A DNA stretch of 64,000 nucleotides from a virus: IMG/VR virus record IMGVR_UViG_3300035158_000293, positions 32,001 through 96,000 of that record, one strand, 5' to 3'. The notes beneath the pieces were generated by a model. The model ran no database searches. It was given only the letters and a program-made list of their open reading frames with translations, and had not been told where the DNA came from. Position 1 is the stretch's first letter. Each line of letters begins with the position of its first letter. Positions 10,736 to 53,318 of this stretch are shown here, piece by piece. Made by a program: the position numbers and the translations under genes.

Positions 10736-11161
10736 TCATGCGTCCCTCTCAGCTTCGTCTCGACAATCCAAAAAGCCACCGTCCGCTTCCACGCCTGTAA
10801 ACTCATAAATCGCATACAGGCTGGAGGGACCGTCCGGTCCCATCACCCGCCCACCATCCTCACCGCGACGCATTACGGACATTTGGCCGCTATCGGCCTG
10901 CACGAATAGCCAAAGATTTTTAGGCCATGAGCGTCGCAACCTCTCCAACGCCCTGATCACCTTTGCCTCTTCCGTAGACAAATCAGACTTCGGAATTAGG
11001 AGCATCGTCGCCCTCCTTCTTCGGTTGTGGAACCGTTCGATAACAGGAACACACACCCTCCGCAACGCACGCAAGACATCTCCTCTGCCCCTCTGCGCAC
11101 TCCCAGCGGTATACAGGCACGCATTTAGAAATATCGGTGTAGCATCCCATGAGGGCGTCAA
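10736..11161 (-). CDS. Hypothetical protein
   Basis: ORF in operon; true start probably MLLIPK after GGAGGG. Confidence 0.45.
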   Translation of the reverse strand: MTPSWDATPIFLNACLYTAGSAQRGRGDVLRALRRVCVPVIERFHNRRRRATMLLIPKSDLSTEEAKVIRALERLRRSWPKNLWLFVQADSGQMSVMRRGEDGGRVMGPDGPSSLYAIYEFTGVEADGGFLDCRDEAERDA

Positions 11162-11270
11162 TACCGCACGCGCACCCGGCCTCTTTATGCGCCAGCCCGT
11201 CGAATCCGTTCTCGCGCAGGTACTTCTTGACGATGTCTTTCACCGTAATGTCAGCGTTCATCTTGTTCAC
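10983..11270 (-). CDS. Cys-rich protein (NGxDGL family)
   Basis: YLRENGFDGL...CACG. Confidence 0.6.
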   Translation of the reverse strand: MNKMNADITVKDIVKKYLRENGFDGLAHKEAGCACGIDALMGCYTDISKCVPVYRWECAEGQRRCLACVAEGVCSCYRTVPQPKKEGDDAPNSEV

Positions 11271-29000: not shown

Positions 29001-30902
29001 CATGTTCGTCTCTCCCAATTTATTGGTGCCACTCTCCAAAAGACCACGCTCTTTCAGTTTGTTGTAAGCCTCGTCCCCCAGCTTGTTTGCGATACTGTAC
29101 GGCATGTTCTTGAACACGTCGTTAATTATGTAGCCGGGTTCGGCTGCACCCCGCGAACGTCGGAAGAATGGGAGAAGCTGATCCAGTATGCCGTCTACTG
29201 TGTGCCACTTATTACTGCTGGGTTTTTCTTTTTTGATCCGCTTGGCAAGCTCGGCAAGTGTGGCCTTGCGTACTTCCTGCGGCTCAAAGAACTGGTAGTC
29301 GAGAAGGCCCGTACCGGAACCCTCGCCGTACTCCTCTATGAACTCCTCACGAGTCATAGGTACAAACTGTCCGTAACGCTCACCTCTGACGTAAACCTTC
29401 GTGATCTGACGAGGTGACACCCGCCCAATGAACAACGCTTGAGGCTCCTGACCCTTGTCCAGTAGTCCGAACGAAACACTCGGTCGGAAAGACTTGGGGT
29501 ACGACTTCCTCCAAAGATCGTCCTCGCGTTCCTGTTCTGCCGGGTTTTGACTGAACAGGTCTTTACCCTGCACCGTGAACCGCAGGATAACGGGTCCGAA
29601 CTTTTCGGCTGTTTTGTAGTCCGGCGCGACAAACAACCCACGGTCAAGCCGCTTGCCTCCTGAATAGTGCGGGTAAAGACGGTGTGTTGGCTTGGTGGCG
29701 TCGACGCCTTTGCGGACAAACTCCAAGGCGGTTTTTTGGTCTGTGCCGTGGAACAGTTGGAGTTTGGTGTTGGGCCGTAGCCGTGCGATGCTTCCGCGCT
29801 TGCCTTCATGGAGAGCTTCGGATTCCTCCATCCGCTCCCGCGTTCCAACGCCCTCATTCACCAGCCGTAGTTCGCCATGAGGCACGTCAAACGGGTTGTC
29901 GTAACCTTTGTCAACCGTTCGGAACCAAACACGCCTGTCAGAGCCTTCGGCAAACCGTTTGATAGCCGCATCTGTCTTTGCCACGGCCACTACCTTGTCA
30001 CCTTCCCTGACGTTGTACAGGTATTTGCCACGGTGTGTCTGCGTAATAATGTAATCACCGGGTGCGGGTGACGACCACCCTTGTGTACTCTCAATTTTGA
30101 GGTTCCTCTGCGCAAGTTCCTTCATGTGTGCCTGCGTCAACTTTTTTCTGCGGGATCGGCGTTTGCGCGGTTTCATGCCGGGTCGCGCATGGCTCATAGG
30201 CACTACCTGCACGTCGGTGATACCGCTTTTCTTCAACCAATTCTTAACACGGGACACCATGTTCTGATCAAGCACCAGCACCTTGTCCAACCATTCAGGA
30301 CGAAACTTGAAATCCCCTCCCCGCAACCATTCGTCTTCTTCCGCGTACTGTTCCATGAAAGCGTCGAGCATCATACCGCGCTTGACGTCCCAAAAATCAC
30401 CGACGAGGTAGTCCTCATATTCTTCCTCTTCGAACGGCTCCCCATCTTCATCAAACACACCTCCCTGAGCAGCGGCGGACGCCAACTCGTCGGGGGTTTC
30501 AATAACCCCGCCCTCCGCGTCAAAAAACTCCTCATACGGGAAGGTATCCATAGCCATGCCGTATGCTTGCTCCGCAGCAACATCGGTCATTTCGGGAGAC
30601 TGTGCGAGGACGTATTCAACAGCCGTTGGGTTTTCGTCAAACCAGTCCTCGGTGTAGTGGACCTCTGTAAAGTGTGATTCGAGTGGTTTGCGATGGAACG
30701 CTAAAATCACATCGTGATGTGTCCCGAACATCCCACCTTCAAGCGGATAAGTCGAAAGGCTGACGAAAGCGGGTCCGCCCATGTATGATGCGTTGGCTTT
30801 CAACGTCCGGGATTTGAGGATGTCCCTGAGAGCTTTGTAGTGTGTGGTGTGAAAGAAGTGCTTGGTCTGCGCTTCGAACAGAGAAATTCCGCTGTTACCC
30901 AT
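20088..30902 (-). CDS. 3604-aa polyvalent, probably virion-associated protein with multiple ART-like domains and a YodL-like domain
   Basis: FFHTT..FVSLS..EEDEW; LFHGT..GLFVAP; FYLSF..GVSSS..NEGEW; YFHGTT..GNYFT; HTSMSIGDVIV. Confidence 0.8.
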   Translation of the reverse strand: MGNSGISLFEAQTKHFFHTTHYKALRDILKSRTLKANASYMGGPAFVSLSTYPLEGGMFGTHHDVILAFHRKPLESHFTEVHYTEDWFDENPTAVEYVLAQSPEMTDVAAEQAYGMAMDTFPYEEFFDAEGGVIETPDELASAAAQGGVFDEDGEPFEEEEYEDYLVGDFWDVKRGMMLDAFMEQYAEEDEWLRGGDFKFRPEWLDKVLVLDQNMVSRVKNWLKKSGITDVQVVPMSHARPGMKPRKRRSRRKKLTQAHMKELAQRNLKIESTQGWSSPAPGDYIITQTHRGKYLYNVREGDKVVAVAKTDAAIKRFAEGSDRRVWFRTVDKGYDNPFDVPHGELRLVNEGVGTRERMEESEALHEGKRGSIARLRPNTKLQLFHGTDQKTALEFVRKGVDATKPTHRLYPHYSGGKRLDRGLFVAPDYKTAEKFGPVILRFTVQGKDLFSQNPAEQEREDDLWRKSYPKSFRPSVSFGLLDKGQEPQALFIGRVSPRQITKVYVRGERYGQFVPMTREEFIEEYGEGSGTGLLDYQFFEPQEVRKATLAELAKRIKKEKPSSNKWHTVDGILDQLLPFFRRSRGAAEPGYIINDVFKNMPYSIANKLGDEAYNKLKERGLLESGTNKLGETNMKGLPNGDTNEHTATFAGRPLVEASYTDADIPEFFYLSFDVYKPSHLESLKKRRLEGAAGVSSSEDIQYLFNKSAALKMPGRAFVEENAVSRVMYDNPMYLTAKNCDALYRLFDASKTPIGLTQVYRNVFEYMIEAFKSDSKYKTLVMENRHIAGHSKLADVARKNPPKKIRGPRDIAKWLKKVGIPKLREEDYTYKRFADALDEVPMKELERKITEGLKLIGQVYKNEGEWIIKDRDLKIPKGSELLIGISQLEDVTNYMEWRDKPSEEWPDILRMKHALDGDTWDEKADLLKEIKKLESDYTIEIVSAKDKNSRFKSWIKARMNESVTEADDTEEALPYYPVYGKHEFIYGEDLDNYEVFDAGVVIAGVEYDKAIMPAGVDGPVKVFFVSDDQEDDVVTAFETSAYAREALASIRRNVETGRKTGQTVYYTYSVLDDFAEKLQNLRTKLRSIRTGSYQKRERFADKDSERDKGLFQTKKEKEQTEYSIDVKEYGDEPFVVMQGEVEVARFATFADALARTKIPVTESDEAAEEEETCAGEHPEHSITTTHPGKDAIVKGDSSTMPSSDGYLLTGKYTSPEGTNPDGEDGDEDEDDNEIEIELPGMEIEIEFDDDFWEGFDTTSNLTEAKALYFHGTTTKFGRSILKQGFKLNQKQKVWDQKNQALASLDGNYFTQNFLTALSSARDATNKFGGDPMLFAVQIETRTAKTDEDQLPDPGSVAVMAAPAGMAITKYTVKEFDPEPDEEFEARYNYQDPDLADWEREYIEGERDKALAQRRDTFEGFVAKYIERMAASQNVDPVKIRRTAEKEIKDFLKAWVRNYEGPGRTDQHNPKIRKELEALVDKLGPVLNRPTTTALQSQYPNVRVTEPITFRGANKIVGAAVIFGKDRDDYVLPVYGNARAIAAGCEKALGHGGVDVLKKTNFRNVERVKAEVLGESAFTQHVFGTEIEAQTTQKRKTNEDARESIFDIDMTRGTNPRKKNAHGRACAFSEGKNEHNQTHRREFDTMSINEPNESTVVSESKQKRFGDEIAKLYRKDTTEKLSPKLQREATNYAARNNEGVALTKQLARAAWMHMPQIEDEEYFTDLFRQAFDRAVGELKLEEQRQKAQITWDYVPLDIERCASCNTVLAEDEPVVVDEEARTMCLDCVDRRKQQPYFEEIAETYQGTIEAGMITSRFGTWGVKKTEAGTLVVLKGKAYDVPNTFEEVHSLVKEIHGMYEDLPEECDAMIEAFLEEYTRDAGTETPESQKVQKQANPEPAEPEEEGARERLLGFGLLTNDNEDHITADPTLAKESEESGMGNLHEAKGETGKLARKVLRLEEGAGTQEEQREQYRKLVAEAKKNVGKAPKLLQPYIRDAIKRVEKELANPNSDPSDWADAELKRLDVRGREVKRIDRWMKEQNAMHYDPKVKGTPHPDWEPVSGSRRLSCNVSGDYGSVSISSTTKEMYVSWTPWTMTVAKKAGVKVEGEEGGQTLPEEVSETENGVQGFDVDTMSMEEEGRRKGKGTEGLKESVMGRGRYGIAAGAYEVVGKTVSGMPVLRKREVCESVAGTHFPKFTRVEGSLAFFRGGIVERGRILAHRADYRHALLNPLQDAASTPMTTIEAGAGSAPFAPDPADLHPLFGAQIPFVPPEETEEGKTADTSVTLPATDRGFAALDQGQNAGLAQETTEAGDNMLKSATNAVDVHNAFPNISPELAAVIAAQVQKGKVTTEQALRDIGERVKHPVERLDDLVYVDRGDAGQPTFMLLNGRVYLDSLARYNLIHGGDRTDGVGLLGEGWKRLGTIDRTRYKKRQGLEGPFQTPTGKVVYYDPREGCYYDPDTDIYYPRNKNPFQESIVEFLEPQEQYVGSDLVNGWSVMFTTESGSTDGPFRVYVNEGNDVNAYRLWSTFPTFAQAMTSAAAHVGQMPRGNSTLHKYDIPEVALKTSRGTFGESKWRAPIITRDVHYGDGKRVTLRRDESGVTIRRGEQVVGSVIRASAAVGDGQTASVYSVQIDSPDVDAVAVTQAVERVLPEFMEEVVRKQAAVSDLSVYPWQGGDAYKYPIGKGRNEPAVKQTDMTKLEKGEALVTLPRSRIAAKTEAVAPDANTIEVSLTVEDSAPDRYVYRTARVDGTRILRIKNDKAVVRITLENSREFTYKFPDQVTASAFAFNVAQGRDWTLDKLNALARNVNQQVTVGEAEDCDYTVQEILRIIDRIERGVSIDTTSKPDDSEVPTNTHTITEGNRCDIVEARKPIEIEWSKQPGRGVVDEFALYVDYDLPKTAPGKAAKPRYAGTKDTRGANVPRALFKNLTQNNRDMNPVYKFKAPEQLDTFVARVKTKARWTEDDLDALAKREGGLRITKLNRYLDSMIRGLKAESSDTMSNDLAEGRDIAAAKKLVKPGYVGTEWETAAGRDAKEPTVIRRVEAYDEDKGMVAISQSDRPAKFMELLPVDQLVGEIAFNRAQAEAAKAKAQTSKEKEEEQQKKQADYEDTDGFAEQFPPLRAGRVRKHLHTRINVPVGIGTNKRVPLKGRDLIRGLVRAGWRVKRGRGGRRIVKGASFFVEKDLSKTLLDYAEYLYPKRKQIKPVKGLPKHFTEDIHPAVFGIGGVVMVPLAEGSPVNEVTEYRNLNVAARYVPGLAEGDTEIWYMKTGVSRDLGMGFDWAKDHDALPDPKNLRKTHILLGKVKERDPEKLFRAMQARLWSPHGEARKLLKQKGIDHTSMSIGDVIVTGNKVLLVDRGGFVDLKKVQESDAVARLHPEQVHHGVLAEERRGILQEGSKRSFPAGTPKQKTAAESILKKLERKLQMEADTLASFYEPEEEPHPLYNPDKATLDKVVKLTLDVLYSVHAGEIVRVAKLRGFDDPNAFFRYFGRWLAGRRDPWDFPVKGMEFVNALKSLSECAFGPYGIESPGPDDLLVLQSFPRKNLYEAKIGDIIIARFESDAALREFVEGATTRVWFQAAEGSNPFNAPEGLTTLIKEADAE

Positions 30903-31007: not shown

Positions 31008-34000
31008 TTATGCGAGCATGCCGTAGCCGTCACCAACCTCCAAATCACCTTCAGCCGAAACCATCATGGTTCCGCATTTGGGGCACTCCATGCCCCGCGC
31101 GGTTGACTGTTTCGGTCCTGTGGAGTAACCACAGCCCGGACACCGCATGAGCCCCACAGACATCGCAAAACCACCGCTGGAGAAACCACCCGTGCTCGCA
31201 GTTGTAGTGACTTCCTTGAGCCTTTTTGCGGTCTTGCCTGTGAAGCCGCTCTCTTGATACTTCTTGTACGCCAACTTGTCGAACTTGCCTTTCTTGGCTT
31301 CCCTCTCAAACTGATCCCGCATCATCTCTGCGGCTCTCTGACGTATCTGTGGAGTAACGTCGAGATAAGGAATGCCTACAACCTTGGAGGCACCTTTGTA
31401 CGCCGCATTGGACAGAGTGAGAAACTTCTTCACCGCCTGCTCGCGGTCGTAGTCACCTTTGGCGACGTGGTTGATCATCGACCTGCAAGCTTGCTGCCAT
31501 GCGGGTTCCGCGGCCATTTGAATCGTTTTGACAATGAAGTCCGCCATCTTCTTACCATACGGCGTTTCTTCATCGCCTTCTCCTTCATCGAGGTGTTCCA
31601 CGCTCTCCATGAACATGCGGACCTTGCGCTGTATCTCCGCCAACCGTGCTGTTTTGTCTAATTTGAAATTGTCGTCCTCTTCATCCTCGTCGGGGTCGTA
31701 CTTAGGGCGCGTAGCCTTGATAACAGCCATTAAGTCAACCGCCTCGTTCAACGCTTCGGGAAACAACTCACGACGTCGTGCTTTGACCCGTTCTATCATA
31801 GGCTCCCATGAACCATATCCGGGATCAAGACGCTCACCATACTGACGCAACGTGTCGGGTGTCATGTACCTTTCTTGTCCGCGCTCTTCAAAGCGTAGTA
31901 ACACGCGGCAATCACTCCCGTCGCTCTCGTTTGGGCCGTTTACAAACAACAGACCGACACTCTCCAAATGCACCGACGATTCCCCGATGATTTGCATAGG
32001 CCAATTCTGCTTGACGATGGGCAAGTAAACACCCTCGCTGGTTGAAGCGTTTGCACCAAACGATACCTGATTGAACGGCACCGGCTTGTGTCGGCTAAGG
32101 TGTGCAACCTGCCTTGCGAGTTTGGTCTGTTTCGGGGTTGAGTAGTCGAACGTCTCTTGGAGATTTGACACAACGTCAAACCCTTCAACCACGTAATCTT
32201 TCGGCTTATGTGTGTAAGGGGATAAACCAACAGGCAATCCGGTGGGAGGTACGAATGCGTCAGGGTTGTTGCTCAAATACTCCTCCATGTCCTTGCGTAG
32301 TATCTTCATCAAACCCCTCTTGTCGCCATCCTTTTCAGGGTCTGTTATTTGATCGTTGAAAACCTCCATGAAACGCTGCGCCCACCAAGGGTTCTGAGGC
32401 ACGGTAAAGAGTGTTTGCTTCTTGGGGTCGTTCAACGCCCGCCCTATTTCTGCAATGCTGTAATTATTCAACTGCGCAGACTCACCGAATAACTCTTGCA
32501 AATACGATAGGTAGTTTTGTACCTCTGGTTTAAGCCCTTTGAACTTCTCCACGGACTCCAAGTAGCTCTCTTTATCGGTCCGCCCTATTTCTTCAATCTT
32601 GTTACCGCCCTCGCTACTAACCTTAACCAACCAAATTTTTTCGTTCCCCTCGGCATCAACTGCGGCGTAATATGCTTTGCGGTATAATTTCCCTTTGTGT
32701 TTACCTACGCCTTCTGTTTCCTCGTACTTCTCTATGGTATCGAAGGTTAGGTTTTTCAAATCCTCAACCGTTCTACTCACACGGTCAGGAATTACAGGGC
32801 TCGACGGCGGCGCGGGAGGGGCCTCTGTAACGGTAGGCTCAGAATCCAAACCCTCACCGGTGATTTTCTTCTTAATCTTAGCATACCACTCACGAACCTG
32901 ATCAAAACCTTCTTTTACATCGTTGCCATAGGTAACATACTCGGCAGCACCTTGATCTATATACCCACCGCGATCCTCAACCTCCTTCAACAAGTCTTCA
33001 TTATTCCACGGATAGGTCAACGTAAGATTGAACCCTTCCTTGGACCCTGTCGATTTGGTTGCGCTGCGCTGTACTCCCTCGTCTGTAGTGTAAATCCCAA
33101 AGTAAATGCTCGCCGCGTCTAACCGACCTTGATTAACGGCGTTCAACAACTTTGTAAGGTTGACACTAATACCCGCAGGACCAACCTTTGACGTAAATGC
33201 TTTAGGCTTTGAATCGCTGGGAGAGAGTTTCAAAGCCCCTTTAACGGTGAAGCCGCCCTCGTTTACTACCTGCTCCTTCGGGATGTTGTTCTTGACCCAC
33301 TCGCGCAGCTCAAGGATTTTAGGATCGGTGGCCGCTTCCTTGGAGTCTTTGACAAACTCCGTGTAAACCTTACCCACGGCTTTCATGGCTTCCTTGAAAG
33401 CCTTAACACTCGGCACCGCCTCTATACCCTCGGACTTGAGGTATTCCTCAACCTGCTTTTCAGTCACAACCATTACATCGCCGTCTGGAACTTCAAAGGC
33501 GAACACACGGTGTACCAAATCAAATCCGCCACCATATGTAGGTAAGTCCTCGACCTGCAAACCCGCCCACTTCAACGAGAAGTCGCGGCCTGCCTCTTCA
33601 CTTTTCAAACCCATGCCTTCAACCGCATCACCAGAGATGATCTTCACGTTGACTACAGGCTTGACTATGGGAACCCCGTAATTTGAGAACTCTTGTGTTG
33701 TAGCCTGAGTCTCCCCGTACTGAGAAGCAAACTCCGCTATCTTGACTTGCTTTTCGTCCGTATAGGTATCGGCTTCTTGATCTGCCGGTTTTTCGGCTTC
33801 TGTATCTGCCATAGCGTCGTCTTGTGTAGCGCCGGGTTCCAGATCAGGCTCCCCGGTTTCTTCGGGCGTTGGAATGTCCAACTGTTGCTCTCCGGGTACG
33901 CCTTCGACGGGCCACATGTCACCGTCCTCATACATATCGAGCAACTGATCATCCCAAACGTGGGTCAGCGTGTCCTGCCCAAGTAGATACAGCAAATAGA

Positions 34001-35837
34001 GAGGATCACCGTCAGGGTCGTTAATGACCGCGTAGATGTACGCCTTATTACCCGACGTATCGGTAACGTAATCCTTCAATTTGACCGGGCTTCCGTTCGC
34101 TTTGGCTGCCTTTGCAAAGTCGGTAGTGTGGATATTAACCATCTCAACACCGGCTTCAGCAATGTCTTGCAATTCCGGCTGTGTCGCCACGTAAGCTTCG
34201 ACCTCTGTACGACGGATGTCGTCAGAAGGAACGTCAACCTCTGTCTCGGGGACCGCGGAACTGGGTAGAGAAGCCCCGACGTAATCACCCCACTCGGTGA
34301 CAACTTTGTTCGTCAACTTCGACAGGCTGTGAATGTACTTTTTCAGAACGGCTTTGATGGACTTCTCGCTCGGCATGACCATCCAATCGCCAAGCTTGTC
34401 CTGCCATTTGCCGTTGGCCTGCACCGTATAGGTTGCGAAAGGTTTCCCCTGCTCCACACCGAAGCCACGAGTCTCCACCGTCATGGTGTTGTACATCTCG
34501 CCGGTAGCTCTCACAAGGAACTCAACGCGCAGATGTGGGAGCCCGACGCCCGGACCATAACCGGGGTCTTTTTGTGGTTCAACGTAAGCCACAAGCACCG
34601 CTGTGTCGGGTTGCCCTCCGGTTTTCGTAGTGTTCGTTTTTTCCACCGCCACAATAACGGGGAAGGAACCACCCAACTTGATCGTGTCGGGAATGTTTCC
34701 AGACTGGGCAAGTCGATCAGCCACGGGCTTCAACGCCTTGCGTAACGCGGGTTTGTATCGCGCCAAGAGCTTTTCCAACTCTTTCACGGTGTACTTCTTT
34801 TTAAGCCCTTGTTTGCGACGGTGTTTCGTCTTGAAGTAGTACTTCTTGGGGAACTTCTTGGCCTTGGCTTCATACAACGCAACAAGATCAGACCTGTCGT
34901 ACAGACTTTCACAAATGCGAGCCTTTGCACGAGTCAATTGCGTGCTTGACATTGAGTCAAACCGCTCCCGCAGACGCTCTATGTCTTCTGTAAGCGGTGT
35001 CCAATTCTCTGCGTCCGTAGTCACCCATCGAACCTTTTGGGCATCCTCTGCCACCACCCTGATTCGACCACCTATACGATGAAGCTGTGCTTGTTCCAAA
35101 TCCACGTCGAAGAGGTGCTCCACAAGCTTGCCAGCGAGCACCTTTTCAACCACGGCCTCCTCATATTTCTTCATGGTGTCTTTCGCCAACTCCGGCTCTT
35201 TTTCTGGCTTCTTGTCTTCTTCCTCCTCTTCGCTACCTTTGTCTTTCTTTTTTGTCGCGGGTCCGGGACGTCCACCCTTGACGGGCTTGCCTTCAAGGAT
35301 AACCACATCAGACACCACCCCGTCTTCGGGAGCCACCGAACCACCATTCACCAGCATATCGAAGGTTGCGATGCTGCTCGTAGTGCTTCTCAGACGCTCA
35401 AACTCCATATCAGACCACTTGCCCTCGAAAATAGCGAGGAAGGAACTACTTCCGGGGCGTACCTGCGTCTCCACGAATTTCTCATACAGGTCACGACGCT
35501 TGGTTAAAAGAAAGGTTTCAAATTCCAGAGCGGCCATGCCGGTGTCAGAGTTGGTGTACGTGGCGTCCTTCTCTATGAATTTCTTGGCAAACTCACGAGC
35601 ATCGACGCTCCCCAAAGCAACCGCTGTCTCCGTGATCAGATCAATATATGCCGCCGGATGTGCAACCGTCTCGCCCGTGATTGTAGTGGGAAGGTCAAGC
35701 CTGTCCCGCATGTCAGCGATGCGATCATAGAGAGAAACGTCGAGCTTGTCCACAAGGTCCGCCTCCAAGCGGCCTTCTTCAAGAGCTTGACGCAGACGTT
35801 TGCCTGAATACAGCGTGCATTTGGGTTGGGCCTTCAT
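31008..35837 (-). CDS. 1609-aa multidomain protein with C-terminal Zn ribbon
   Basis: GGAGG RBS; long ORF; CPGC...CPKC at C-terminus; LxE[AG] linkers. Confidence 0.8.
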   Translation of the reverse strand: MKAQPKCTLYSGKRLRQALEEGRLEADLVDKLDVSLYDRIADMRDRLDLPTTITGETVAHPAAYIDLITETAVALGSVDAREFAKKFIEKDATYTNSDTGMAALEFETFLLTKRRDLYEKFVETQVRPGSSSFLAIFEGKWSDMEFERLRSTTSSIATFDMLVNGGSVAPEDGVVSDVVILEGKPVKGGRPGPATKKKDKGSEEEEEDKKPEKEPELAKDTMKKYEEAVVEKVLAGKLVEHLFDVDLEQAQLHRIGGRIRVVAEDAQKVRWVTTDAENWTPLTEDIERLRERFDSMSSTQLTRAKARICESLYDRSDLVALYEAKAKKFPKKYYFKTKHRRKQGLKKKYTVKELEKLLARYKPALRKALKPVADRLAQSGNIPDTIKLGGSFPVIVAVEKTNTTKTGGQPDTAVLVAYVEPQKDPGYGPGVGLPHLRVEFLVRATGEMYNTMTVETRGFGVEQGKPFATYTVQANGKWQDKLGDWMVMPSEKSIKAVLKKYIHSLSKLTNKVVTEWGDYVGASLPSSAVPETEVDVPSDDIRRTEVEAYVATQPELQDIAEAGVEMVNIHTTDFAKAAKANGSPVKLKDYVTDTSGNKAYIYAVINDPDGDPLYLLYLLGQDTLTHVWDDQLLDMYEDGDMWPVEGVPGEQQLDIPTPEETGEPDLEPGATQDDAMADTEAEKPADQEADTYTDEKQVKIAEFASQYGETQATTQEFSNYGVPIVKPVVNVKIISGDAVEGMGLKSEEAGRDFSLKWAGLQVEDLPTYGGGFDLVHRVFAFEVPDGDVMVVTEKQVEEYLKSEGIEAVPSVKAFKEAMKAVGKVYTEFVKDSKEAATDPKILELREWVKNNIPKEQVVNEGGFTVKGALKLSPSDSKPKAFTSKVGPAGISVNLTKLLNAVNQGRLDAASIYFGIYTTDEGVQRSATKSTGSKEGFNLTLTYPWNNEDLLKEVEDRGGYIDQGAAEYVTYGNDVKEGFDQVREWYAKIKKKITGEGLDSEPTVTEAPPAPPSSPVIPDRVSRTVEDLKNLTFDTIEKYEETEGVGKHKGKLYRKAYYAAVDAEGNEKIWLVKVSSEGGNKIEEIGRTDKESYLESVEKFKGLKPEVQNYLSYLQELFGESAQLNNYSIAEIGRALNDPKKQTLFTVPQNPWWAQRFMEVFNDQITDPEKDGDKRGLMKILRKDMEEYLSNNPDAFVPPTGLPVGLSPYTHKPKDYVVEGFDVVSNLQETFDYSTPKQTKLARQVAHLSRHKPVPFNQVSFGANASTSEGVYLPIVKQNWPMQIIGESSVHLESVGLLFVNGPNESDGSDCRVLLRFEERGQERYMTPDTLRQYGERLDPGYGSWEPMIERVKARRRELFPEALNEAVDLMAVIKATRPKYDPDEDEEDDNFKLDKTARLAEIQRKVRMFMESVEHLDEGEGDEETPYGKKMADFIVKTIQMAAEPAWQQACRSMINHVAKGDYDREQAVKKFLTLSNAAYKGASKVVGIPYLDVTPQIRQRAAEMMRDQFEREAKKGKFDKLAYKKYQESGFTGKTAKRLKEVTTTASTGGFSSGGFAMSVGLMRCPGCGYSTGPKQSTARGMECPKCGTMMVSAEGDLEVGDGYGMLA

Positions 35838-35968: not shown

Positions 35969-36877
35969 CTAGTCCCACTCCACCTGTTCCGTCTTGTCCA
36001 TGAAGGTCACGCCAGCAGGCCACTTTTCGGGGACCATTATCATGTAGTCCGTGAAAACTCGCGGGGAAAGAACATCGTCTTTCAACGCCACCTGCACGGC
36101 CTCGAACAGGTGAAACGCTTGGCAATTCCCCAAGGTGTCGGCATGCTCCCACACAAACAACCGACGTGTAGACATACGGCCTCGCCCCGCCGACCGGCTA
36201 AGGTCGAACATGTGGATGATGGCTTCCCACAGAGCATCCAAATCGGCGTAGGTAAAGCCTGTGTCTGCGGCGAGCATGGGGTTGACGAAACCTTCTGCGA
36301 CGTACAAACCGTAAGGGATCGTGTACTTGGAACCCATCTCCGTCTCGCTTTTGTGCGAGTCCGTTTTCTCCTGCGTAGTGTACGCCACCCGCGTGATCAT
36401 GTGGTTTTTGATCAGAACACGGCTCACCGACCGAGCATCTGTTATCTGTACCGGCCCTGTAACTTGTCCGTTGTTGAACGCCGTAGTGCTCATTACCGCA
36501 CCGAACGCCCGTACATCGAAAAAGTTTGCGCACATCCAATCCCGCGCCTGCGCAATGTCGTCCTTTGTGGCTTTCTCGGGGTCGATTTTCAAATTATCGT
36601 AGGACATCCTCTGACGACTCTCGAGAGCGTGCCCCGCCAGCACGAAGATGTCCTGCCCCTTTTCGACTTTACCGCCTTGCGAGTGCTTGTAGTAGTGAAA
36701 GTCCCGTATCTTGCGCTTCAGGCTTCCGTTGGAAACAAGCCCTTGAAATGTTTCCGGGTCCGTCCGTGGAGCGTTGTTGAAATCGGGATCACCGTTGGGG
36801 TTTCCGTCCACACAATCGAACATGATGAGAAAATCGTACCGCCGGTCAACTACCTTGTCACGTTTGGCGTCTGCCAT
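35969..36877 (-). CDS. cas7: Type I-C Cas7 (Csd2)
   Basis: RYDF...GNPNGDPD..NAPR.DPET..GLVS...LKRKIRD; FFDVRAFGAVM; GPVQ; MGSKYTIPYGLY. Confidence 0.97.
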   Translation of the reverse strand: MADAKRDKVVDRRYDFLIMFDCVDGNPNGDPDFNNAPRTDPETFQGLVSNGSLKRKIRDFHYYKHSQGGKVEKGQDIFVLAGHALESRQRMSYDNLKIDPEKATKDDIAQARDWMCANFFDVRAFGAVMSTTAFNNGQVTGPVQITDARSVSRVLIKNHMITRVAYTTQEKTDSHKSETEMGSKYTIPYGLYVAEGFVNPMLAADTGFTYADLDALWEAIIHMFDLSRSAGRGRMSTRRLFVWEHADTLGNCQAFHLFEAVQVALKDDVLSPRVFTDYMIMVPEKWPAGVTFMDKTEQVEWD

Positions 36878-36932
36878 TTTGTGATCCTTTCGTTTTTTGT
36901 TTGTTTCAACCTTTTTTTTTCAACATAACCCG

Positions 36933-37403
36933 TTTTCAATCCGCGCACATGTGCGAGTGTTACTGTTGGTGCGAGTGTTGGATTTGAACCCTTCACAGTT
37001 TTCAATCCGCGCACATGTGCGAGTGTTACCTCACCCATGCGATGGGCTGTGGCAGAATGTTTTCAATCCGCGCACATGTGCGAGTGTTACCCGGTATGAT
37101 CCGTCTCTCCCTTTCAATCCGCGCACATGTGCGAGTGTTGCTGTGATAAACTATCGGTCTGATCCTGTCTTTCAATCCGCGCACATGTGCGAGTGTTACC
37201 ACCTGACCGCTTTTCCTTTTTTCAATCCGCGCACATGTGCGAGTGTTACCAATGGACGCTCATCCAGCTTGCAGTTTTTCAATCCGCGCACATGTCCAAG
37301 CGTTACTTTATTTTCAATCCGCGCACATGTACGAGTGTTGTCATGTCCTCCATGATCGGCTCAACTTTGTGTCTTTCAATCCGCGCACATGTGCGAGTGT
37401 TAC
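36933..37403 (-). CRISPR. Type I-C-like array: 9 repeats (GTAACACTCGCACATGTGCGCGGATTGAAA), 8 irregular spacers
   Basis: 30-nt cores start (+) at 36934, 37000, 37061, 37112, 37170, 37220, 37277, 37312, 37374; GGATTGAAA 3' end typical of I-C; spacers in transcription order 32, 5, 27, 20, 28, 21, 31, 36 nt. Confidence 0.95.
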
Positions 37404-37825
37404 TGGCTTTCGGTAGTTTCCGTTTCGGCCTCCTTTCTGGCGATAGCTTCCTCTGCCTGCTGTCGATCATGGGCTTTTTGGTGGTAAAAACCGACGGCGA
37501 AAAGCGCCTGATCTTCCGGGCTTTGCTGTGTCGGGAACCGCTCTATTCGATTCATTACGTCTGTCACCCGCTGGTCAATCGCGTGGCCTGCCGCCACAAT
37601 CGCGGGGTTGCGTGATCTCTTGAGTTTCGCAATGTGGTAGCGAGCCTTCGGGTTCATCTCGGAAAAAGCTTGATCCGGTACGACCGCGGCGTTACGGAAA
37701 AACTGCTCGGCAACCGTCCGCTGTATCTTGAAAATGGCTTTGTACTGCAAAGTGTCGTAGATAGCCAGCAAACGCCCACACAGGTAGGCGGGGTGGTTAT
37801 TGTTGTGGTCCAATTGCGCTTCCAC
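37400..37825 (-). CDS. cas11: Cas11c small subunit from internal in-frame start in cas8c
   Basis: GAGGAGG SD (37831-37837) 5 nt before in-frame GTG, just ahead of LD..N.HPAYLCGRL, where I-C Cas11 is known to start. Confidence 0.75.
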   Translation of the reverse strand: MEAQLDHNNNHPAYLCGRLLAIYDTLQYKAIFKIQRTVAEQFFRNAAVVPDQAFSEMNPKARYHIAKLKRSRNPAIVAAGHAIDQRVTDVMNRIERFPTQQSPEDQALFAVGFYHQKAHDRQQAEEAIARKEAETETTESQ

Positions 37826-39244
37826 GTTGCCCTCCTCTAAATCATTCAAACATACCCGCAGAAGTGCAAGTTTCTGTGACGCCCTCTGCATAGGGTCAGT
37901 ACAAAAAATCCTTTCCAACAACCGTGAGAGCACTCGTCGGTCGAGCGGTTCGTTGAACAGCGCCCGCCACACCAAACTCTGCTGGATGTGGTCCTCTGGA
38001 CTTTTACCTTTTGTCGCCGCACCCTCCATTGCGGGGTCTGCAAGTGTTTTTTGTAGTTTCCACAATGCGGGCGCTCGAACAAAGCGTCCGCTGTAGGGGC
38101 TCTGAACTCGCACGTCGTGGAACCATTGCCACACGTTTTCGTATATCTCCCCTATGGTGTTGTCATCGTACCGCCGCACGATCATGCGGGACATGTTCGC
38201 TGTAACGGTAAGTGAGTGAAAGCGCAAATCCGTAACCTGTGGTAGTGGTTCCGATTCTGTTCCTGCACCAAAAACTTGACACAACGTCAAACCCTGCTTC
38301 GGAGCATCCAGAACAGCACTTACAATGTCCGGGTCGGGGTTGTTCACGAACTCCATCGGAGGGTGTAAAACAGGTTCGTCGGTCCAGCACAGTAGTGCCG
38401 CGCCCCGGATATTGTATCGCGTTCGCACCTCTTTCTCGGACCTGTACCGGAGCAGATCGTTCAACGCCATAACATACGCTTTGGATGCTCGTATGCTCAT
38501 CGGGCAGTTTTGATTTTGTTTCCATCCAAACGACTCGAACGCCGCACGATTAAACGATATGAGCGATACACCCGAAGGCATACCCCCGATATTGGTGCAA
38601 TGTTTGATTTTATCGTGCGTCCGCGACAACGGTCCATACTCCCCCGTCACAATACAGTATCCGTGCCCCGCGGAAGCGTGGCGTTCGAAAACACCCTCCT
38701 CGTAGTAATCTGCCCAATACTGTCGCAGGGCCTCACGCTCGACCACAGGTTCAGGTGAAGTGCTTCCGGGGATTGCGCAGTATAACGCCAACCGATTGTT
38801 GGCTACAACACCTCGTTCAACAGCTAACTCTCTGGCCTTTTTGACCACTTCGGGGTCCGCATAGAACGCCACACACGCCTTAACCGCTGGATCGTCGGTA
38901 ACGTCTGCGATTGTATTCCACAATTCAACCGAGGCAACGTGACGTTCGTTGTGATTTCGCTCTTTACCTTCCGGTGTCCATGCGGGGTCCGCCCCCAAAA
39001 TATACTGCACCGCGTCGCACCCCGGTAGTGGGTACAACCCGCCGGACCTGTGGTGCGGAGATTTGGGGGCTGAAAGGGTTGTTTGACCTTCCGGTGCAAT
39101 ATCTTCAAAAGGCATAATGTCCACAAGCCCGCCTTTTGCATCGAGAGCAACTACGAAGTGTACCAAACCCTCTTCAAACGCTGGGTTGTTCAACTCGTCA
39201 GACAGGTTGCTTTCCGCATAGGCACACAAAGCCTTCAAATACAT
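37400..39244 (-). CDS. cas8c: Type I-C Cas8c (Csd1)
   Basis: CIVTGE....RTHDKIK; SLISFNRAAFESFG..QN.N.P; AYVMALNDLL; AYLCGRLLA; FAVGFYHQ. Confidence 0.95.
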   Translation of the reverse strand: MYLKALCAYAESNLSDELNNPAFEEGLVHFVVALDAKGGLVDIMPFEDIAPEGQTTLSAPKSPHHRSGGLYPLPGCDAVQYILGADPAWTPEGKERNHNERHVASVELWNTIADVTDDPAVKACVAFYADPEVVKKARELAVERGVVANNRLALYCAIPGSTSPEPVVEREALRQYWADYYEEGVFERHASAGHGYCIVTGEYGPLSRTHDKIKHCTNIGGMPSGVSLISFNRAAFESFGWKQNQNCPMSIRASKAYVMALNDLLRYRSEKEVRTRYNIRGAALLCWTDEPVLHPPMEFVNNPDPDIVSAVLDAPKQGLTLCQVFGAGTESEPLPQVTDLRFHSLTVTANMSRMIVRRYDDNTIGEIYENVWQWFHDVRVQSPYSGRFVRAPALWKLQKTLADPAMEGAATKGKSPEDHIQQSLVWRALFNEPLDRRVLSRLLERIFCTDPMQRASQKLALLRVCLNDLEEGNVEAQLDHNNNHPAYLCGRLLAIYDTLQYKAIFKIQRTVAEQFFRNAAVVPDQAFSEMNPKARYHIAKLKRSRNPAIVAAGHAIDQRVTDVMNRIERFPTQQSPEDQALFAVGFYHQKAHDRQQAEEAIARKEAETETTESQ

Positions 39245-39945
39245 CGCAATTCCCCCCACGCCTTCCTGTCCAAAACCACGAAGGGGTCTGTATTGATGAC
39301 CCCATCACGCATGACCGCTCGGTAGAACACGGGCGTGTTGTGGCCGTTTTCCCTGTAGACGATGCCGTACAACATTGTCCCCAAATCCTTCGTGACAGGA
39401 ATGGGGGTGCCTTCATCGCCTGTCAGACACGTTATGTTTGCGGCATACTCTCGACATCCGAGGTACGGTTGGTGAAACTGTTGCCCCTCCCGTAAGCGAC
39501 GCAGGAACATCTCCTTGTATTTGGTCGGTCTGCTCTGTTTGTCCGCTCGATGAACCTTCGGATATGCCGTCACAATGTAGTCAACGTCCCGCAAGATTCG
39601 CCCTGTGCGGTTTGTTGTGTGCCTCGCTTGTCCCGCACCGCCCGGCTGTGGTCGGTAGGTGGAGGGGTCGCCCATCCACCGCTTTACCGTGCGCGGAGCA
39701 ACTTTATTGAGGAGTTCGTTCGTCGCAAAGCTCTGCCATTTGATGGGTTTCAACACCGCAATGCTGGTGATTATCCAAATGAATTCGGGCTTCCCGAGGA
39801 TAGCCCGCAGAGCACCGCGTAGTGCAGACGGTGTCGGCACCTCGTAGGATACTCGTTCAGCCTTCCCCTCGGGTCGTGTGAAACACGCCAAAGCCCCTCT
39901 GATCCTCACCGTTACGCTCGCGTGTTTTTGTCTTGTGGTAGTCAT
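39235..39945 (-). CDS. cas5: Type I-C Cas5 (Cas5d)
   Basis: G..ACFTRPE.K.ERVSYEVPTPSA.RG; LRDVDY; FHQPYLGCREY; DLGTMLY; start reassigned to ATG 39945 (AAGGGGG RBS). Confidence 0.96.
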   Translation of the reverse strand: MTTTRQKHASVTVRIRGALACFTRPEGKAERVSYEVPTPSALRGALRAILGKPEFIWIITSIAVLKPIKWQSFATNELLNKVAPRTVKRWMGDPSTYRPQPGGAGQARHTTNRTGRILRDVDYIVTAYPKVHRADKQSRPTKYKEMFLRRLREGQQFHQPYLGCREYAANITCLTGDEGTPIPVTKDLGTMLYGIVYRENGHNTPVFYRAVMRDGVINTDPFVVLDRKAWGELRCI

Positions 39946-39967: not shown

Positions 39968-39996
39968 AGTTTACCCGGTGGAGCGAGTTTTGTCAA
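39968..39996 (-). promoter_or_regulatory. Sigma70-type promoter of the cas operon
   Basis: TTGACA-N17-TAAACT with T-rich upstream element. Confidence 0.8.
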
Positions 39997-41403: not shown

Positions 41404-42675
41404 TCACACCCCCAAACGTACAAGCGGAATTCTTGCTCGTGCTTGTGCAATTTTTGCACTTCCCAAATCTTTCTCAATTAACACAAAGTCGTACTCCAAA
41501 CGCTGGGCCGCAAGTCCTGTTGTTCCTGAACCGGCAAACGGGTCCAAAAGCAAACCGCCCTCGGGAGGTTGTACGAGCTTACACAAATACTCCATGAGTG
41601 CAAGCGGCTTGACTGTTGGATGTTTGTTGACTACACGACCATCGTCTGTGCGTTCCTTTCGTGAGGCTTTCGCGCAGTAAAAGAACCGCGCAGCACTACC
41701 TTCGTCCCCGAACGTGTCCGTCGCGACCGTATCAGGCTTCCATTCCCCGTACACATTCTTTCCAGCACTCTCGGACATCTGCCTGCGCGTCCCTTTCTTC
41801 ATGAACCCGCTTTTTGTGTTCGGGAAGTGTTGTAGAACCTCAGCGCTCCCGTCGTGGATCAGGTTGGCGGGGAAGCGGCCTTTTTTGGAAGCACGCAACC
41901 CTCCTTGTGCAGTAGGATCACCCTTACCCACTAGCCCCATAAACTTATCCGACATAAAACCAGCGCCAGAGGCACCATCCTGCCTAACCCAACCCGGACC
42001 ATCCACTCTACATCCGTCTATGTTTAAGCCAGCTACACCATGCTCAAGTGCGTTTTGTGCGTATGTTCCATCGAGCGGTTTCATGCAAAGCCACCAACAT
42101 TCTACGGATGGCTTGAGTGCCGTCCCCCAGCCATCCCAAAGTTGGGCAGCGTGAGTGGCGGGGGCGGTGATGTCCAGCACGTTCTCGCCCTTTTGGTATT
42201 CCCCCGGACGATAGTTGTGATCTTTGGCGTTACTACGATTGAGGTGCTCTGTGCCACCACCTTTCCTTCGAACTTTAGCAATCACCTCCCGCTCCGCACC
42301 AGCGGCCTTGTCTAGTGCCTTTGAGATGTCATGGTTTTTGGGGAACCCCTGTCCTGTAACGTAGTAAACACAATCCCTTACAACAAAACCTGCGTCCTCT
42401 AATCCCATAGCGGTCCAATGGCTCGTGCGAGGGAGCGCCCAACACAGACAATGTGCGCCGGGTTTTAGAACCCGCAGGACTTCCCCCATAACAAGTGTCA
42501 ACCACTCAATCCATTTGTCCCTACCTCCTTTGTTTGAATCCCATTGCTTGCCCATGAATGAGATTCCGGCGGGAGGGTCGGTGACACATGCGGTGAATGT
42601 GTTGTCCGGGAGCCGCTTCAAGACATCCAAGCAGTCTCCGTTGACTACGGTGTTTTTTATGTCATGGAGAATCAT
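41404..42675 (-). CDS. DNA methyltransferase, N6A/N4C beta class
   Basis: VTDPPAG; GFPKNHD; GWGTALKP; HPTVKP; LDPFAGSGTTG. Confidence 0.92.
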   Translation of the reverse strand: MILHDIKNTVVNGDCLDVLKRLPDNTFTACVTDPPAGISFMGKQWDSNKGGRDKWIEWLTLVMGEVLRVLKPGAHCLCWALPRTSHWTAMGLEDAGFVVRDCVYYVTGQGFPKNHDISKALDKAAGAEREVIAKVRRKGGGTEHLNRSNAKDHNYRPGEYQKGENVLDITAPATHAAQLWDGWGTALKPSVECWWLCMKPLDGTYAQNALEHGVAGLNIDGCRVDGPGWVRQDGASGAGFMSDKFMGLVGKGDPTAQGGLRASKKGRFPANLIHDGSAEVLQHFPNTKSGFMKKGTRRQMSESAGKNVYGEWKPDTVATDTFGDEGSAARFFYCAKASRKERTDDGRVVNKHPTVKPLALMEYLCKLVQPPEGGLLLDPFAGSGTTGLAAQRLEYDFVLIEKDLGSAKIAQARARIPLVRLGV

Positions 42676-43703: not shown

Positions 43704-45507
43704 CTAACAGAAACGCACAAGCGGAACCTGCACTCTGTTCTGTGCCACGCGAGCGCTGTTCAACTCTTTCTCAATCAACACAAAGTCGCAACCCACACTA
43801 CGAGCCGCGAGCCCTGTTGTTCCTGAACCGGCAAACGGATCGAGGATAATCCCGCCAGTCGGCGTCCGTACCAATTTGCACAAATACTCCATAAGTGCAA
43901 GCGGCTTGACTGTTGGATGCTTGTTGACTACGCGGCCATTGTCTGTGCGCTCTTTTTTATTTACCTTGGCACAATAGAAGAACCGCGTTGTGTTCTGCGA
44001 ATGGTACGGGCACGGGTCCATGTCCTTCACCTTCTTGAACATGCCCTCGCTTTGCTGTTTAGTCAAAGGAGGATCACACGTACCGTCCGCTTCTCGCCAT
44101 GCACAGTTAGCGCACGAGGGTTCGACGTCGGGATCACATTGCTGGAAAAATCTTGATGCTCCACCCTTGTCGCCATGTTGGTTATGTGGACCGCCCTCAC
44201 CACGAATAAACCCTGTTATGCCATCACTACTGTAACCGCCAACCTTGCGCTTCATAGCACCTGATTGTGTGACACCACTCTGGTCGTCCAACAGACGTAC
44301 CGGGCAATCAGGGTGGCACTCCCACACCTCCACCGTTTCTTTGCCGTCAGCGTCGCCGTGACAAGGGCCACACGGTTCTTTTCCGCCTTTTTCGGCTCCC
44401 ACGTTGGCAAAGCCGCCCGGACGCTTTCCTGAGCCTCCTGCGCGTTTGTCACCTCTCACTTGTGTAGTCCCTCTGCAACGACACGCTGGGTGGTGTGTGA
44501 GAATTATGTTGGCTGGCCAACGACCTTGTTTGTGGGCTCCTGTCGGTATCGCGTTTGTCTCGGGACGATCTTCTCGACCTTCCGCCGTTCGCCACGCATT
44601 GAAATTACGACCGCCGCCCGGAACGGGTGATCCGGGGTTGATTCTACACCCGTCAATGTTCAGACCAGCTACACCATGCTCAAGCGCATTTTGAGCGTAT
44701 GTCCCATCGAGCGGTTTCATCGCCACAATCACGCTTTCCCATGCTGGTTTGAGTGCTGTCCCCCATCCGTCCCAAAGCTGGGCAGCGTCGGTGGAGGCTT
44801 CGTATACATTCCCGCTGTGTGCCAACCCGTAGATCGTCCCGTCGCCCCGTCTATCAGTCTTGACGCCTCTTCGTGTGAGGCGCAAGTCCTCTGCTCGAAC
44901 TCTGTCCCTCCACTTTGGCGACACTCCCAACCGATCAACAAGGATGTTGTATGCTTCAAGAGACGGAACACGAAAGCCGTGATCGGTTCTTTCCCAGTTG
45001 TCTGTCACATAACCGTACTGAGGGAACCACCCCTTCAATTCCCGGCGCGACACACCCGCTTGTTCGCGGCACATCCGTATTTCTTTAGCCAGCTCTTTTC
45101 TCGCTTGTAGGTGTAGAGCCGACCGACCTCCCGCCTTGTCAATCGCCTTCGCAATGTCATGGTTTTTGGGGAAGCTAACCAGAGCCATACAGCCACATAA
45201 TGCAATCGCGGATTTCGAAACCCGCATCTTCGATTGCACATGTCAGCCGATGGCTCGTTCTGGTCCCTCCGAAGGCCAGTAGATGTCCGCCGGGCTTGAG
45301 TACACGGAGAACCTCTTTCCAGTAAGTCTCCCCCGGCACGCCGTGATCCCAATCCTTACTCATAAAAAATAATCCATATGGCGGGTCTGTTACACAAGCA
45401 TCAATACAAGCGTCAGGAAGACGCTTCAAAACCTCCAAGCAATCTCCATTGACTACGGTATTCAAAACATCGTTAAAGCACACCGTTGACAACCTCCTAT
45501 CGGCCAC
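43704..45507 (-). pseudogene. Frameshifted beta-class DNA methyltransferase with internal HTH domain
   Basis: DPPY half (45175-45507) ends WLYGSG*; FPKNHD...HPTVKP...DPFAGSG half continues in another frame; 4 extra nt (TAGC, 45174-45177). Confidence 0.85.
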
Positions 45508-46139: not shown

Positions 46140-46212
46140 AGCTGGGGATGGGAATTGAACCCACAACCCCCGGTTTACAAAACCGGCGCTCTGCCAATTG
46201 AGCTACCCCAGC
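46140..46212 (-). tRNA. tRNA-Thr (TGT), CCA not encoded
   Basis: GCTGGGG/CCCCAGC acceptor stem, TAGCTCAATTGGCAGAGC D arm, CCGGT-TTTGTAA-ACCGG anticodon arm, GGTTCAATTCC T loop. Confidence 0.95.
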
Positions 46213-52620: not shown

Positions 52621-53274
52621 TCACATCCAACGGGGTTTGTCAAGTGGAGGACTTAGTAAATGGAAGGTTTCGCCGTGAGGTCTATCCCACGCCTTATCAT
52701 AAGTAAAGAAGGCGTAAAGGGTTGAGTCAACTTTACCATCTCCGGTAAAAGATGGTCTTTTTGACACAAACGCCATGTGTCTTGGGAATATCTCCTCTTC
52801 GTGGAACTTACGGCGCGAATCAGACTCCATCCACGCAGCTCGTAACAGCAGTAGCACCACGCCGTCGTCTTTCGTAACAGCAAGGCACTTACGAACGAAA
52901 GGCAAAAGAATTTCGGAAGAGTACGGGGGATTGGTAGCTACAACATCGAACTTGAATTCCGGGGGTGCCCACTTCAAAAAGTCTGTGCAGGTGTCACAAA
53001 CGTCGAACAGCCCTTTTGGAGGGGACACCTCTCGAACATCCACACCACGCACTTCGCACGAGGGCCAACGTGTCTTAACCACTTGTGCAAAAGGTGCGTG
53101 ATCACCACACCCCGGCTCCAAAAATTTTTCGGGTGCGGTTTGTAGAGGAAAAGCATCGAAGAAGGACTGAACCAACGCCAACGGCGTCTGGTAATTGTCA
53201 TTGGCTATGCGTTTGCGCTTGGGTTCTTTCTTAACAGGTTTCTTGACCCGCTTAGGTCTTTTGTGTACGCGCAC
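52621..53274 (-). CDS. Small DNA adenine methyltransferase
   Basis: DNYQTP; FLEPGCGD; VATNPPYS; RPSF. Confidence 0.85.
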   Translation of the reverse strand: MRVHKRPKRVKKPVKKEPKRKRIANDNYQTPLALVQSFFDAFPLQTAPEKFLEPGCGDHAPFAQVVKTRWPSCEVRGVDVREVSPPKGLFDVCDTCTDFLKWAPPEFKFDVVATNPPYSSEILLPFVRKCLAVTKDDGVVLLLLRAAWMESDSRRKFHEEEIFPRHMAFVSKRPSFTGDGKVDSTLYAFFTYDKAWDRPHGETFHLLSPPLDKPRWM

Positions 53275-53318
53275 ATCGCCCCCTTTTGTCTTTTGAACTC
53301 CTACGTCTGTAGGTTTGG

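Follow-up and report, generated by a model that had tools for sequence, protein, structure and literature searches.

The IMG/VR viral record IMGVR_UViG_3300035158_000293 carries a CRISPR array inside a type I-C cas operon, and the spacers of this array are irregular in length and mostly short. We describe the operon and array as they lie in a window of 64,000 nucleotides (positions 32,001 to 96,000 of the record), within a contig of 123,798 bp, linear according to IMG/VR and 75% complete according to CheckV. Coordinates are those of the window unless the contig is named. All long open reading frames of the 64-kb window are on the minus strand, as is the whole operon, which is ordered cas5c-cas8c (with an internal cas11c)-array-cas7.

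A type I-C Cascade operon with an embedded array

The operon comprises the following features, given in the direction of transcription:

39968–39996, minus strand: promoter-like site just upstream of cas5c, TTGACA, 17 nt, TAAACT (consensus scan, 10/12 matches)
39235–39945, minus strand: cas5c, 236 aa, ATG at 39945 (NCBIfam TIGR01876, 133 bits, cut-off 85)
37400–39259, minus strand: cas8c/csd1, 619 aa, TAA stop at 37402–37400 within repeat 1 (TIGR01863, 314 bits, cut-off 219)
37400–37825, minus strand: internal cas11c frame, GAGGAGG, 5 nt, GTG at 37825–37823 (read from the sequence)
36934–37403, minus strand: array of nine repeats, leaderless, between cas8c and cas7 (repeat search)
35969–36877, minus strand: cas7/csd2, 302 aa, with its own AAGGA ribosome-binding site (TIGR02589, 280 bits, cut-off 182)

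Over their full length, Cas5c, Cas8c, and Cas7 all score above the NCBI curated cut-offs for type I-C, and PADLOC agrees with the type I-C calls for the three genes. The Pfam models are covered almost end to end, with positions 3–215 of the 217 in Cas_Cas5d, 2–556 of the 559 in Cas_Csd1, and 2–247 of the 249 in Cas_Cas7. The module has the same components as the canonical type I-C Cascade of D. vulgaris (PDB 8DEX, 7KHA), namely Cas5c, Cas8c with an internal Cas11c, and Cas7, and the phage proteins align full length to the solved complex (E 4e-38 for Cas5c). Cas5c is the endonuclease that processes precursor CRISPR RNA (pre-crRNA) in canonical type I-C systems. Residues 484–595 of Cas8c align to the separate Cas11c chain 7kha_K (E 1.8e-11), and the gene retains the internal start and ribosome-binding site for Cas11c. 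Columns that are near-invariant among relatives are retained at 91 of 99 positions in Cas7 and at 79 of 98 in Cas8c. The ratio of Cas8c to Cas7 identity is 0.54–0.66 for the phage versus 0.70–0.87 in cellular pairs, and at a given Cas7 identity the phage Cas8c and Cas5c are both more diverged than in cellular pairs.

Relatives of the module are distant. Among 5.8 billion proteins the closest Cas8c has 36% identity, the best metagenomic locus reaches 39%, and we found no relative of the phage or of its Cas8c closer than 39% identity. Searches of IMG/VR with Cas8c alone and with a Cas8c alignment returned one distant, truncated locus. A Cas8c alignment against metagenomes returned 80 loci, with cas8c and cas7 adjacent in all 76 that hold both genes. 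A Cas7 alignment against IMG/VR gave 13 loci, mostly with a canonical cas layout or a retained Cas3 match (in two the match is confined to Cas7, and in one to Cas5 and Cas7), and none of the 13 has an array between cas8c and cas7 or short spacers. Two IMG/VR contigs (L099 and L100, 112 and 119 kb) resemble the present one in having a phage-borne, type I-C-like module (~1800–11300 of each locus) with cas5-cas8-cas7 and no Cas1, Cas2, or Cas4 match in the fetched stretch. They differ in keeping a divergently oriented Cas3 beside cas5 and in having no embedded array; their arrays lie on both sides, with units of 57–82 nt, mostly 69–78.

The array has no leader, because the cas8c stop codon falls inside repeat 1. 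Downstream, cas7 starts 56 nt past repeat 9, and a scan of the minus strand between array and cas7 revealed no terminator-like site. The gap between cas8c and cas7 is thereby 523 nt, versus at most 112 nt in 76 of 76 related loci holding both genes. The promoter-like site ahead of cas5c is a consensus match only, placed relative to the Shine-Dalgarno sequence and ATG of that gene.

Canonical type I-C systems also include Cas3, Cas1, Cas2, and Cas4, none of which was found on the phage contig. Profiles for the Cas3 core (TIGR01587), the Cas3 HD domain (PF18019), and Cas1 (PF01867) had 0 matches in the 123.8-kb contig. Searches of the contig by tblastn returned nothing below E 0.7 for Cas3 (Pfam-verified query) and nothing below E 0.5 for Cas4, Cas1, and Cas2 (verified queries).

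Conserved repeats and irregular, mostly short spacers

The units of the array, in transcription order, are:

37374–37403, minus strand: repeat 1 (R1)
37342–37373, minus strand: spacer 1, 32 nt, near canonical
37312–37341, minus strand: repeat 2 (R2)
37307–37311, minus strand: spacer 2, 5 nt
37277–37306, minus strand: repeat 3 (R3)
37277–37341, minus strand: degenerate unit R2-spacer 2-R3, with three changes each in R2 and R3
37250–37276, minus strand: spacer 3, 27 nt
37220–37249, minus strand: repeat 4 (R4)
37200–37219, minus strand: spacer 4, 20 nt
37170–37199, minus strand: repeat 5 (R5)
37142–37169, minus strand: spacer 5, 28 nt, with a 15-nt core in common with spacer 6
37112–37141, minus strand: repeat 6 (R6)
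37091–37111, minus strand: spacer 6, 21 nt, in which the common core begins 6 nt further in than in spacer 5
37061–37090, minus strand: repeat 7 (R7)
37030–37060, minus strand: spacer 7, 31 nt, near canonical
37000–37029, minus strand: repeat 8 (R8)
36964–36999, minus strand: spacer 8, 36 nt, composite
36934–36963, minus strand: repeat 9 (R9)

A repeat search allowing up to three mismatches placed nine copies of a 30-nt repeat on a single strand at 36934–37403, starting at 36934, 37000, 37061, 37112 (one mismatch), 37170, 37220, 37277 (three), 37312 (three), and 37374. The sequence-only reading of this DNA had reported six identical repeats and three with one to three changes, and the search recovers exactly that set, the three variant copies carrying 1, 3, and 3 changes. 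No copies appeared in 100 dinucleotide shuffles and no further copies elsewhere in the full contig, where a k-mer array scan revealed no second array. Start-to-start distances are 66, 61, 51, 58, 50, 57, 35, and 62 nt. The spacers on the minus strand are therefore 32, 5, 27, 20, 28, 21, 31, and 36 nt in transcription order, so that the irregular and mostly short spacers described earlier hold to their exact lengths.

We compared the array with 80 metagenomic loci containing Cas8c relatives, 13 IMG/VR loci with a type I-C-like Cas7, and three GenBank 'Bacteriophage sp.' fragments. Anchoring on GGATTGAAA gave unit lengths for 43 distinct type I-C arrays and 1205 repeat-to-repeat units, with a mode of 65–68 nt. 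Units of 62 nt or less make up 5 of 1205 in the comparison arrays versus seven of eight here (Fisher p ~8e-15), and units of 58 nt or less 3 of 1205 versus five of eight. The spacer-length observation is real and strongly anomalous. Placement differs as well: in canonical type I-C systems the array flanks the cas genes and spacers are ~33–36 nt, whereas here the array is embedded and spacers span 5–36 nt.

The 3′ end of the repeat on the minus strand is ...GGATTGAAA, or, written with more bases, ...GCGCGGATTGAAA, followed by a purine (A or G). From its sequence this end is the type I-C handle, GGATTGAAA plus a purine being shared with the canonical system. Canonical type I-C repeats are ~32–37 nt long with a stable hairpin and a ...GGATTGAAAC end; the phage repeat has the 3′ end, and its hairpin is weak, the consensus folding at −4.7 kcal/mol, no better than shuffled sequence. 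R2 folds at −4.6 kcal/mol and retains the same hairpin through a G-U pair, and R3 folds at −2.5 kcal/mol with the hairpin absent from its centroid structure. No match to the CRISPR-DR families of Rfam reached the gathering score. Because the positions on both sides of the 30-nt core are purines in every copy, the repeat may be 31–32 nt long and the spacers 1–2 nt shorter still; with a 32-nt repeat they become 30, 3, 25, 18, 26, 19, 29, and 34 nt.

Several cellular type I-C repeats carry exactly the same handle half (GCGGATTGAAA) as the phage repeat. The stem of the phage repeat is unlike that of all 43 cellular arrays and completely diverged from relatives. A 19-mer of the repeat had 0 matches in IMG/VR, and in 185,579 GTDB species genomes it revealed no array and two single matches that we take as chance. 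On the minus strand at 36903–36911, ~22 nt past the last repeat, GGTTGAAAC follows nine consecutive A; its likeness to the canonical repeat end GGATTGAAAC may mark what is left of a tenth repeat or may be fortuitous.

Variation within the array is unevenly distributed. The last 18 nt of the repeat (3′ stem arm and handle) are unchanged in nine of nine copies, and the seven substitutions all fall within the first 11 nt, for which (11/30)^7 = 9e-4. No indels occur in the nine repeats, against a spacer range of 5–36 nt. Repeats look constrained, and spacer length does not.

Spacer 8 consists of 19 nt (36981–36999), a 12-nt fragment of the repeat 5′ end (36969–36980), and a further 5 nt (36964–36968), and its local alignment to the repeat scores 11 versus a maximum of 9 in 300 shuffles. 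The most plausible reading is a deletion scar, with the 3′ portion of an earlier repeat and the bulk of an earlier spacer lost. A tRNA 3′ end as the origin of spacer 8 is not supported: no pairing would form in the T-stem, and what might pass for an acceptor stem is the repeat fragment. A 15-nt core is common to spacers 5 and 6 (13 of 15 positions matching, one gap), a score reached by 14 of 20000 shuffles and of borderline significance, ~0.03, after 42 comparisons. The core starts at position 1 in spacer 5 and at position 7 in spacer 6, an offset of one Cas7 step. On this borderline similarity, the two spacers could be guides against variants of one target.

Proposed guides for a binding-only Cascade and competing explanations

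We propose, with moderate confidence, that the array supplies hard-wired short guides for a binding-only phage Cascade. A binding-only role is the most economical reading of short guides beside an intact Cascade, because the array belongs to an intact type I-C module on a contig without detectable Cas3. Given intact effector genes and no second array in view, some of the array RNAs at least are probably in use. The sequence-only reading had suggested guides tuned for repression; the repressive role is upheld in part by the intact Cascade without detectable Cas3, and the word tuned is too strong for every unit, given the signs of deletion.

In the mechanism we envisage, the leaderless array would be transcribed within a cas5c-cas8c-array-cas7 mRNA and would serve as the sole visible guide source for a phage Cascade of Cas5c, Cas8c, internal Cas11c, and Cas7. 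Canonical type I-C cutting of the repeats would release RNAs resembling CRISPR RNA (crRNA), each with an 11-nt 5′ handle, a spacer of ~18–32 nt, and a weak 3′ hairpin. The RNAs with short guides would assemble with fewer than the canonical seven Cas7 subunits, and the Cascade would be guided to bind DNA, most plausibly repressing transcription of host or rival-element genes. The whole would amount to a self-sufficient, multiplexed counterpart of regulatory guides of the CreR/CreA/Cracr type. Not every unit need function: both R2-5-nt spacer-R3 and spacer 8, a composite, look like leftovers of deletion.

As a more tentative extension, a nuclease-free type I-C Cascade with fixed, leaderless, sub-canonical guides in the same mRNA may form a self-sufficient multiplex CRISPR interference (CRISPRi) device that silences several host-defence or rival-element promoters. 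The host would need no compatible CRISPR system, and short guides could yield small complexes that escape Cas3 licensing or Cascade-directed inhibitors. Phage CRISPR systems without a nuclease are already known, and so are short regulatory guides (CreR, CreA, Cracr); the viral short-guide examples so far borrow host Cas proteins and carry two or three guides. The present locus differs in its phage-owned effector, its eight-unit array, and the apparent fusion of that array into the cas mRNA. If our proposal is true, phages can run RNA-guided repression by themselves, and the locus offers a compact natural template for multiplex CRISPRi with a ~4 kb effector plus guides. The locus is also relevant to how short a type I-C spacer can become without losing the ability to load, and to whether an array embedded in the cas mRNA sets subunit ratios.

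Type I-C variants of huge phages are without Cas1 and Cas2, carry a helicase replacing Cas3, and have a Cas5 closest to Cas5d whose proposed active-site residues are altered; nuclease-less phage systems of this kind were proposed to repress without cleaving (Al-Shayeb et al. 2020, PMC7162821). As described in the available portion of that paper, these variants are like the present system in being phage-borne, in lacking Cas1 and Cas2, and in their compact arrays and altered Cas5. They differ in the helicase that stands in for Cas3, as neither helicase nor Cas3 was detected here, and the same portion of the paper (PMC7162821) makes no mention of embedded arrays or short spacers. We found no published phage type I-C operon with an embedded short-spacer array; supplementary tables (Cracr Table S2 and those of Al-Shayeb et al.) may hold similar loci.

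Short guides are documented in type I-F, where, according to the sections available of the bioRxiv preprint by Liu et al. (10.1101/2024.10.29.618823), the spacer-like parts of viral Cracrs are mostly 17–21 nt and those of host CreA/CreR 23–27 nt. With these RNAs the complexes are binding-only and shorter, containing fewer Cas7-family subunits, and cas or toxin promoters are repressed; viral Cracr arrays of two or three guides exist, nine of these arrays being for type I-C (10.1101/2024.10.29.618823). On that description, Cracr, CreR, and CreA have in common with the present array their short spacer-like parts (17–27 nt), partly degenerate repeats, and several units per transcript, and CreR/CreA likewise lie in CRISPR-Cas loci. 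Cracrs hijack host Cas proteins and are defined by similarity to CreA/CreR together with a position outside CRISPR-Cas loci. They have two or three spacers and a host effector, whereas the present locus has eight spacers inside a phage-owned Cascade operon. Set against a Cracr-like length of ~17–27 nt, four of the eight spacers are 20–28 nt, to which the 19-nt true part of spacer 8 can be added; spacers 1 and 7, at 32 and 31 nt, come close to canonical length, and spacer 2, with its 5 nt, is too short for a Cracr-like guide. Homing guides of CRISPR-associated transposons (CAST) were ruled out, the contig having 0 matches to TniQ (PF06527) or rve (PF00665).

Several observations weigh against a binding-only Cascade with short guides, beginning with the search for targets. 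No protospacer, full or next to a protospacer-adjacent motif (PAM), was found for any spacer in the collections searched. Ungapped best matches of seven spacers to the 123.8-kb contig were no better than those of shuffles. PAM-proximal prefixes of at least 9 nt and shared 12-mers in the contig, its own cas promoter included, were at chance level and none had TTC. Prefixes of at least 10 nt were likewise at chance level in 99 fetched loci (1.06 Mb), where the spacer 8 matches to one locus (L098) come down to a single 10-mer within that locus's 86-copy repeat and the spacer 4 matches in cas8c genes to a purine-rich 10-mer coding for Lys-Glu-Lys without a TTC PAM. No spacer matched any cas or toxin promoter in the phage contig or these 99 loci, and neither set held a prefix match of at least 9 nt beside a TTC PAM. 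By blastn with E allowed up to 10, the array gave only noise among INPHARED phages and PLSDB plasmids, and exact 23-mers of spacers 1 and 7, the only two so searched, had 0 matches in IMG/VR. Against 401 bacterial genomes of one phylum the array DNA reached a best E of 0.006 per genome, and none of the six hits inspected was a tRNA gene. Among the loci found there is also no relative with this layout.

Further points on the same side concern processing and the completeness of the contig. The repeat hairpin is weak, at −4.7 versus −14.3 and −17.5 kcal/mol in two relatives. Cas5c is altered at 15 of 57 near-invariant columns, clustered in the helix with the equivalents of B. halodurans Y46 and W47, which we take as reference positions from the portions available of PMC5965381 and PMC3973291. 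Within this helix, five columns with near-invariant residues across 49 relatives (A, D, W, M, R) have become L, R, G, F, I, and the Trp among them, kept in 48 of 48 relatives, is Gly in the phage. The column equivalent to Y46 is Cys in 43 of 49 relatives, and residue identity there is uninformative. Because this catalytic-position helix is remodelled, processing by the phage Cas5c is not assured on sequence grounds; perhaps the enzyme has changed in step with the weak repeat hairpin, or perhaps its endonuclease activity has been lost or impaired. Cas3 or a second array could also sit in the missing part of the 75%-complete contig.

The remaining adverse observations also favour the main rival, neutral erosion of a captured array. 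Under this explanation the array was captured with canonical 34–35-nt spacers and has since shrunk by small deletions, leaving only spacers 1 and 7 in working order, or none. The sole 'full-length' spacer, the 36-nt spacer 8, contains the 12-nt repeat fragment, and R2 and R3, with three changes each and the R3 hairpin lost, border the 5-nt spacer; deletions therefore do strike this array. Spacer lengths do not fall into clean 6-nt steps, no targets were found, and lost spacers would be irreplaceable in a phage without Cas1, Cas2, and Cas4. Against erosion, there are at least eight length changes versus only seven substitutions in 270 nt of repeat, all of them in the 5′ 11 nt, with the handle half invariant in all nine copies. 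Seven deletions of the observed sizes would all lie wholly within spacers by chance with p ~1.3e-4 under a simple model, a figure weakened by a survivorship effect, since destroyed repeats get counted as spacer. Were repeats hit as often as spacers, merged over-long spacers would be expected, and none are seen. Intact Cascade genes and the internal Cas11c start are hard to square with mostly dead guides. The operon has a guanine-plus-cytosine (GC) content of 0.53–0.56, in line with other phage genes (0.535, standard deviation 0.02), which together with the fully diverged repeat stem suggests that the module is a long-standing resident of the phage rather than a fresh, decaying capture. We consider erosion unlikely as the full explanation. 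If the short spacers are indeed deletion scars, the locus is a rare snapshot of an adaptation-less array eroding while its repeats are kept.

A cis-acting role in RNA processing is less probable again. The repeats would be Cas5c cleavage sites that split cas8c from cas7 in the mRNA, with spacers as mere linkers, and would let Cas7, of which several copies are required, be made independently of the single-copy subunits Cas5c and Cas8c. The placement of the array fits this, as it is leaderless, with the cas8c stop in repeat 1 and cas7 56 nt past repeat 9 behind its own ribosome-binding site, and a cas8c-cas7 spacing above 112 nt occurs in 0 of 76 related loci. Conserved repeats with free spacer length are also as expected. 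One or two sites would have been enough, however, and nine are present. Since Cascade still needs guides and only one array is seen, processing in cis can add to the guide role and cannot replace it, and as the whole function of the array we judge it improbable.

The sequence-only reading had offered, as its other possibility, repeat-dominated RNAs that sequester Cas proteins as an RNA anti-CRISPR. In this case a repeat-rich transcript like that of a Racr would soak up host type I-C Cas5c, Cas7, and Cas8c and block host immunity. The handle half shared with several cellular repeats (GCGGATTGAAA) would suit such a decoy, the 5-nt unit would give a nearly repeat-only RNA, and RacrIC1 shows that type I-C repeat mimics can inhibit (PMC10651486, in the part available). 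Racrs are, like the present repeats, phage-encoded mimics of CRISPR repeats, with one type I-C example. As far as that part of the source goes, however, Racrs are solitary repeat units and not cas-associated, arrays having been excluded by the pipeline (Camara-Wilpert et al. 2023, PMC10651486), whereas here nine repeats stand within 470 nt inside a complete Cascade operon. The repeat stem moreover differs from all 43 cellular arrays, and the 19-mer search of GTDB species genomes revealed no repeat-like array, its two single matches being attributed to chance. The decoy explanation looks very improbable, and the anti-CRISPR part of the earlier proposal is not supported.

A collapsed or chimeric assembly, conceivable for a metagenome-derived contig, is scarcely credible as the source of the odd spacing, because mis-joins in repeat arrays would fall inside identical repeats and drop or reorder whole units while leaving spacers untruncated, the cas8c frame runs cleanly into repeat 1 with cas7 following intact, and seven different short lengths would require seven separate errors.

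Genes surrounding the operon

Elsewhere the contig encodes a tail fibre, ribonucleotide reductase, thymidylate synthase, and methyltransferases, along with five tRNA genes (Thr, Leu, Phe, Lys, Gln), one at window positions 46140–46212 and four clustered near the contig end at contig positions 121329–122027. Looking up the ribonucleotide reductase gave a weak host lead only, to Chloroflexota or Thermodesulfobacteriota.

Two giant genes lie directly downstream of cas7: one of 1609 aa (31008–35837), with no significant match in Pfam, PHROGs, NCBIfam, or PADLOC and no relatives in IMG/VR, and one of 3604 aa (20088–30902). Three DNA methyltransferase genes are found at 41404–42675, 43704–45239, and 52621–53415, two of them just upstream of the cas operon, and one of the methyltransferase genes near the operon has a weak helix-turn-helix match. 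The methyltransferase neighbourhood suggests anti-restriction, and the upstream methyltransferases together with the downstream giant proteins would suit a region of host takeover or counter-defence. Short tandem repeats of ~22 and ~24 nt, which are not CRISPR-like, occur at window positions 3355–3420 and at contig positions ~5185–5300, 26.8 kb before the window start.

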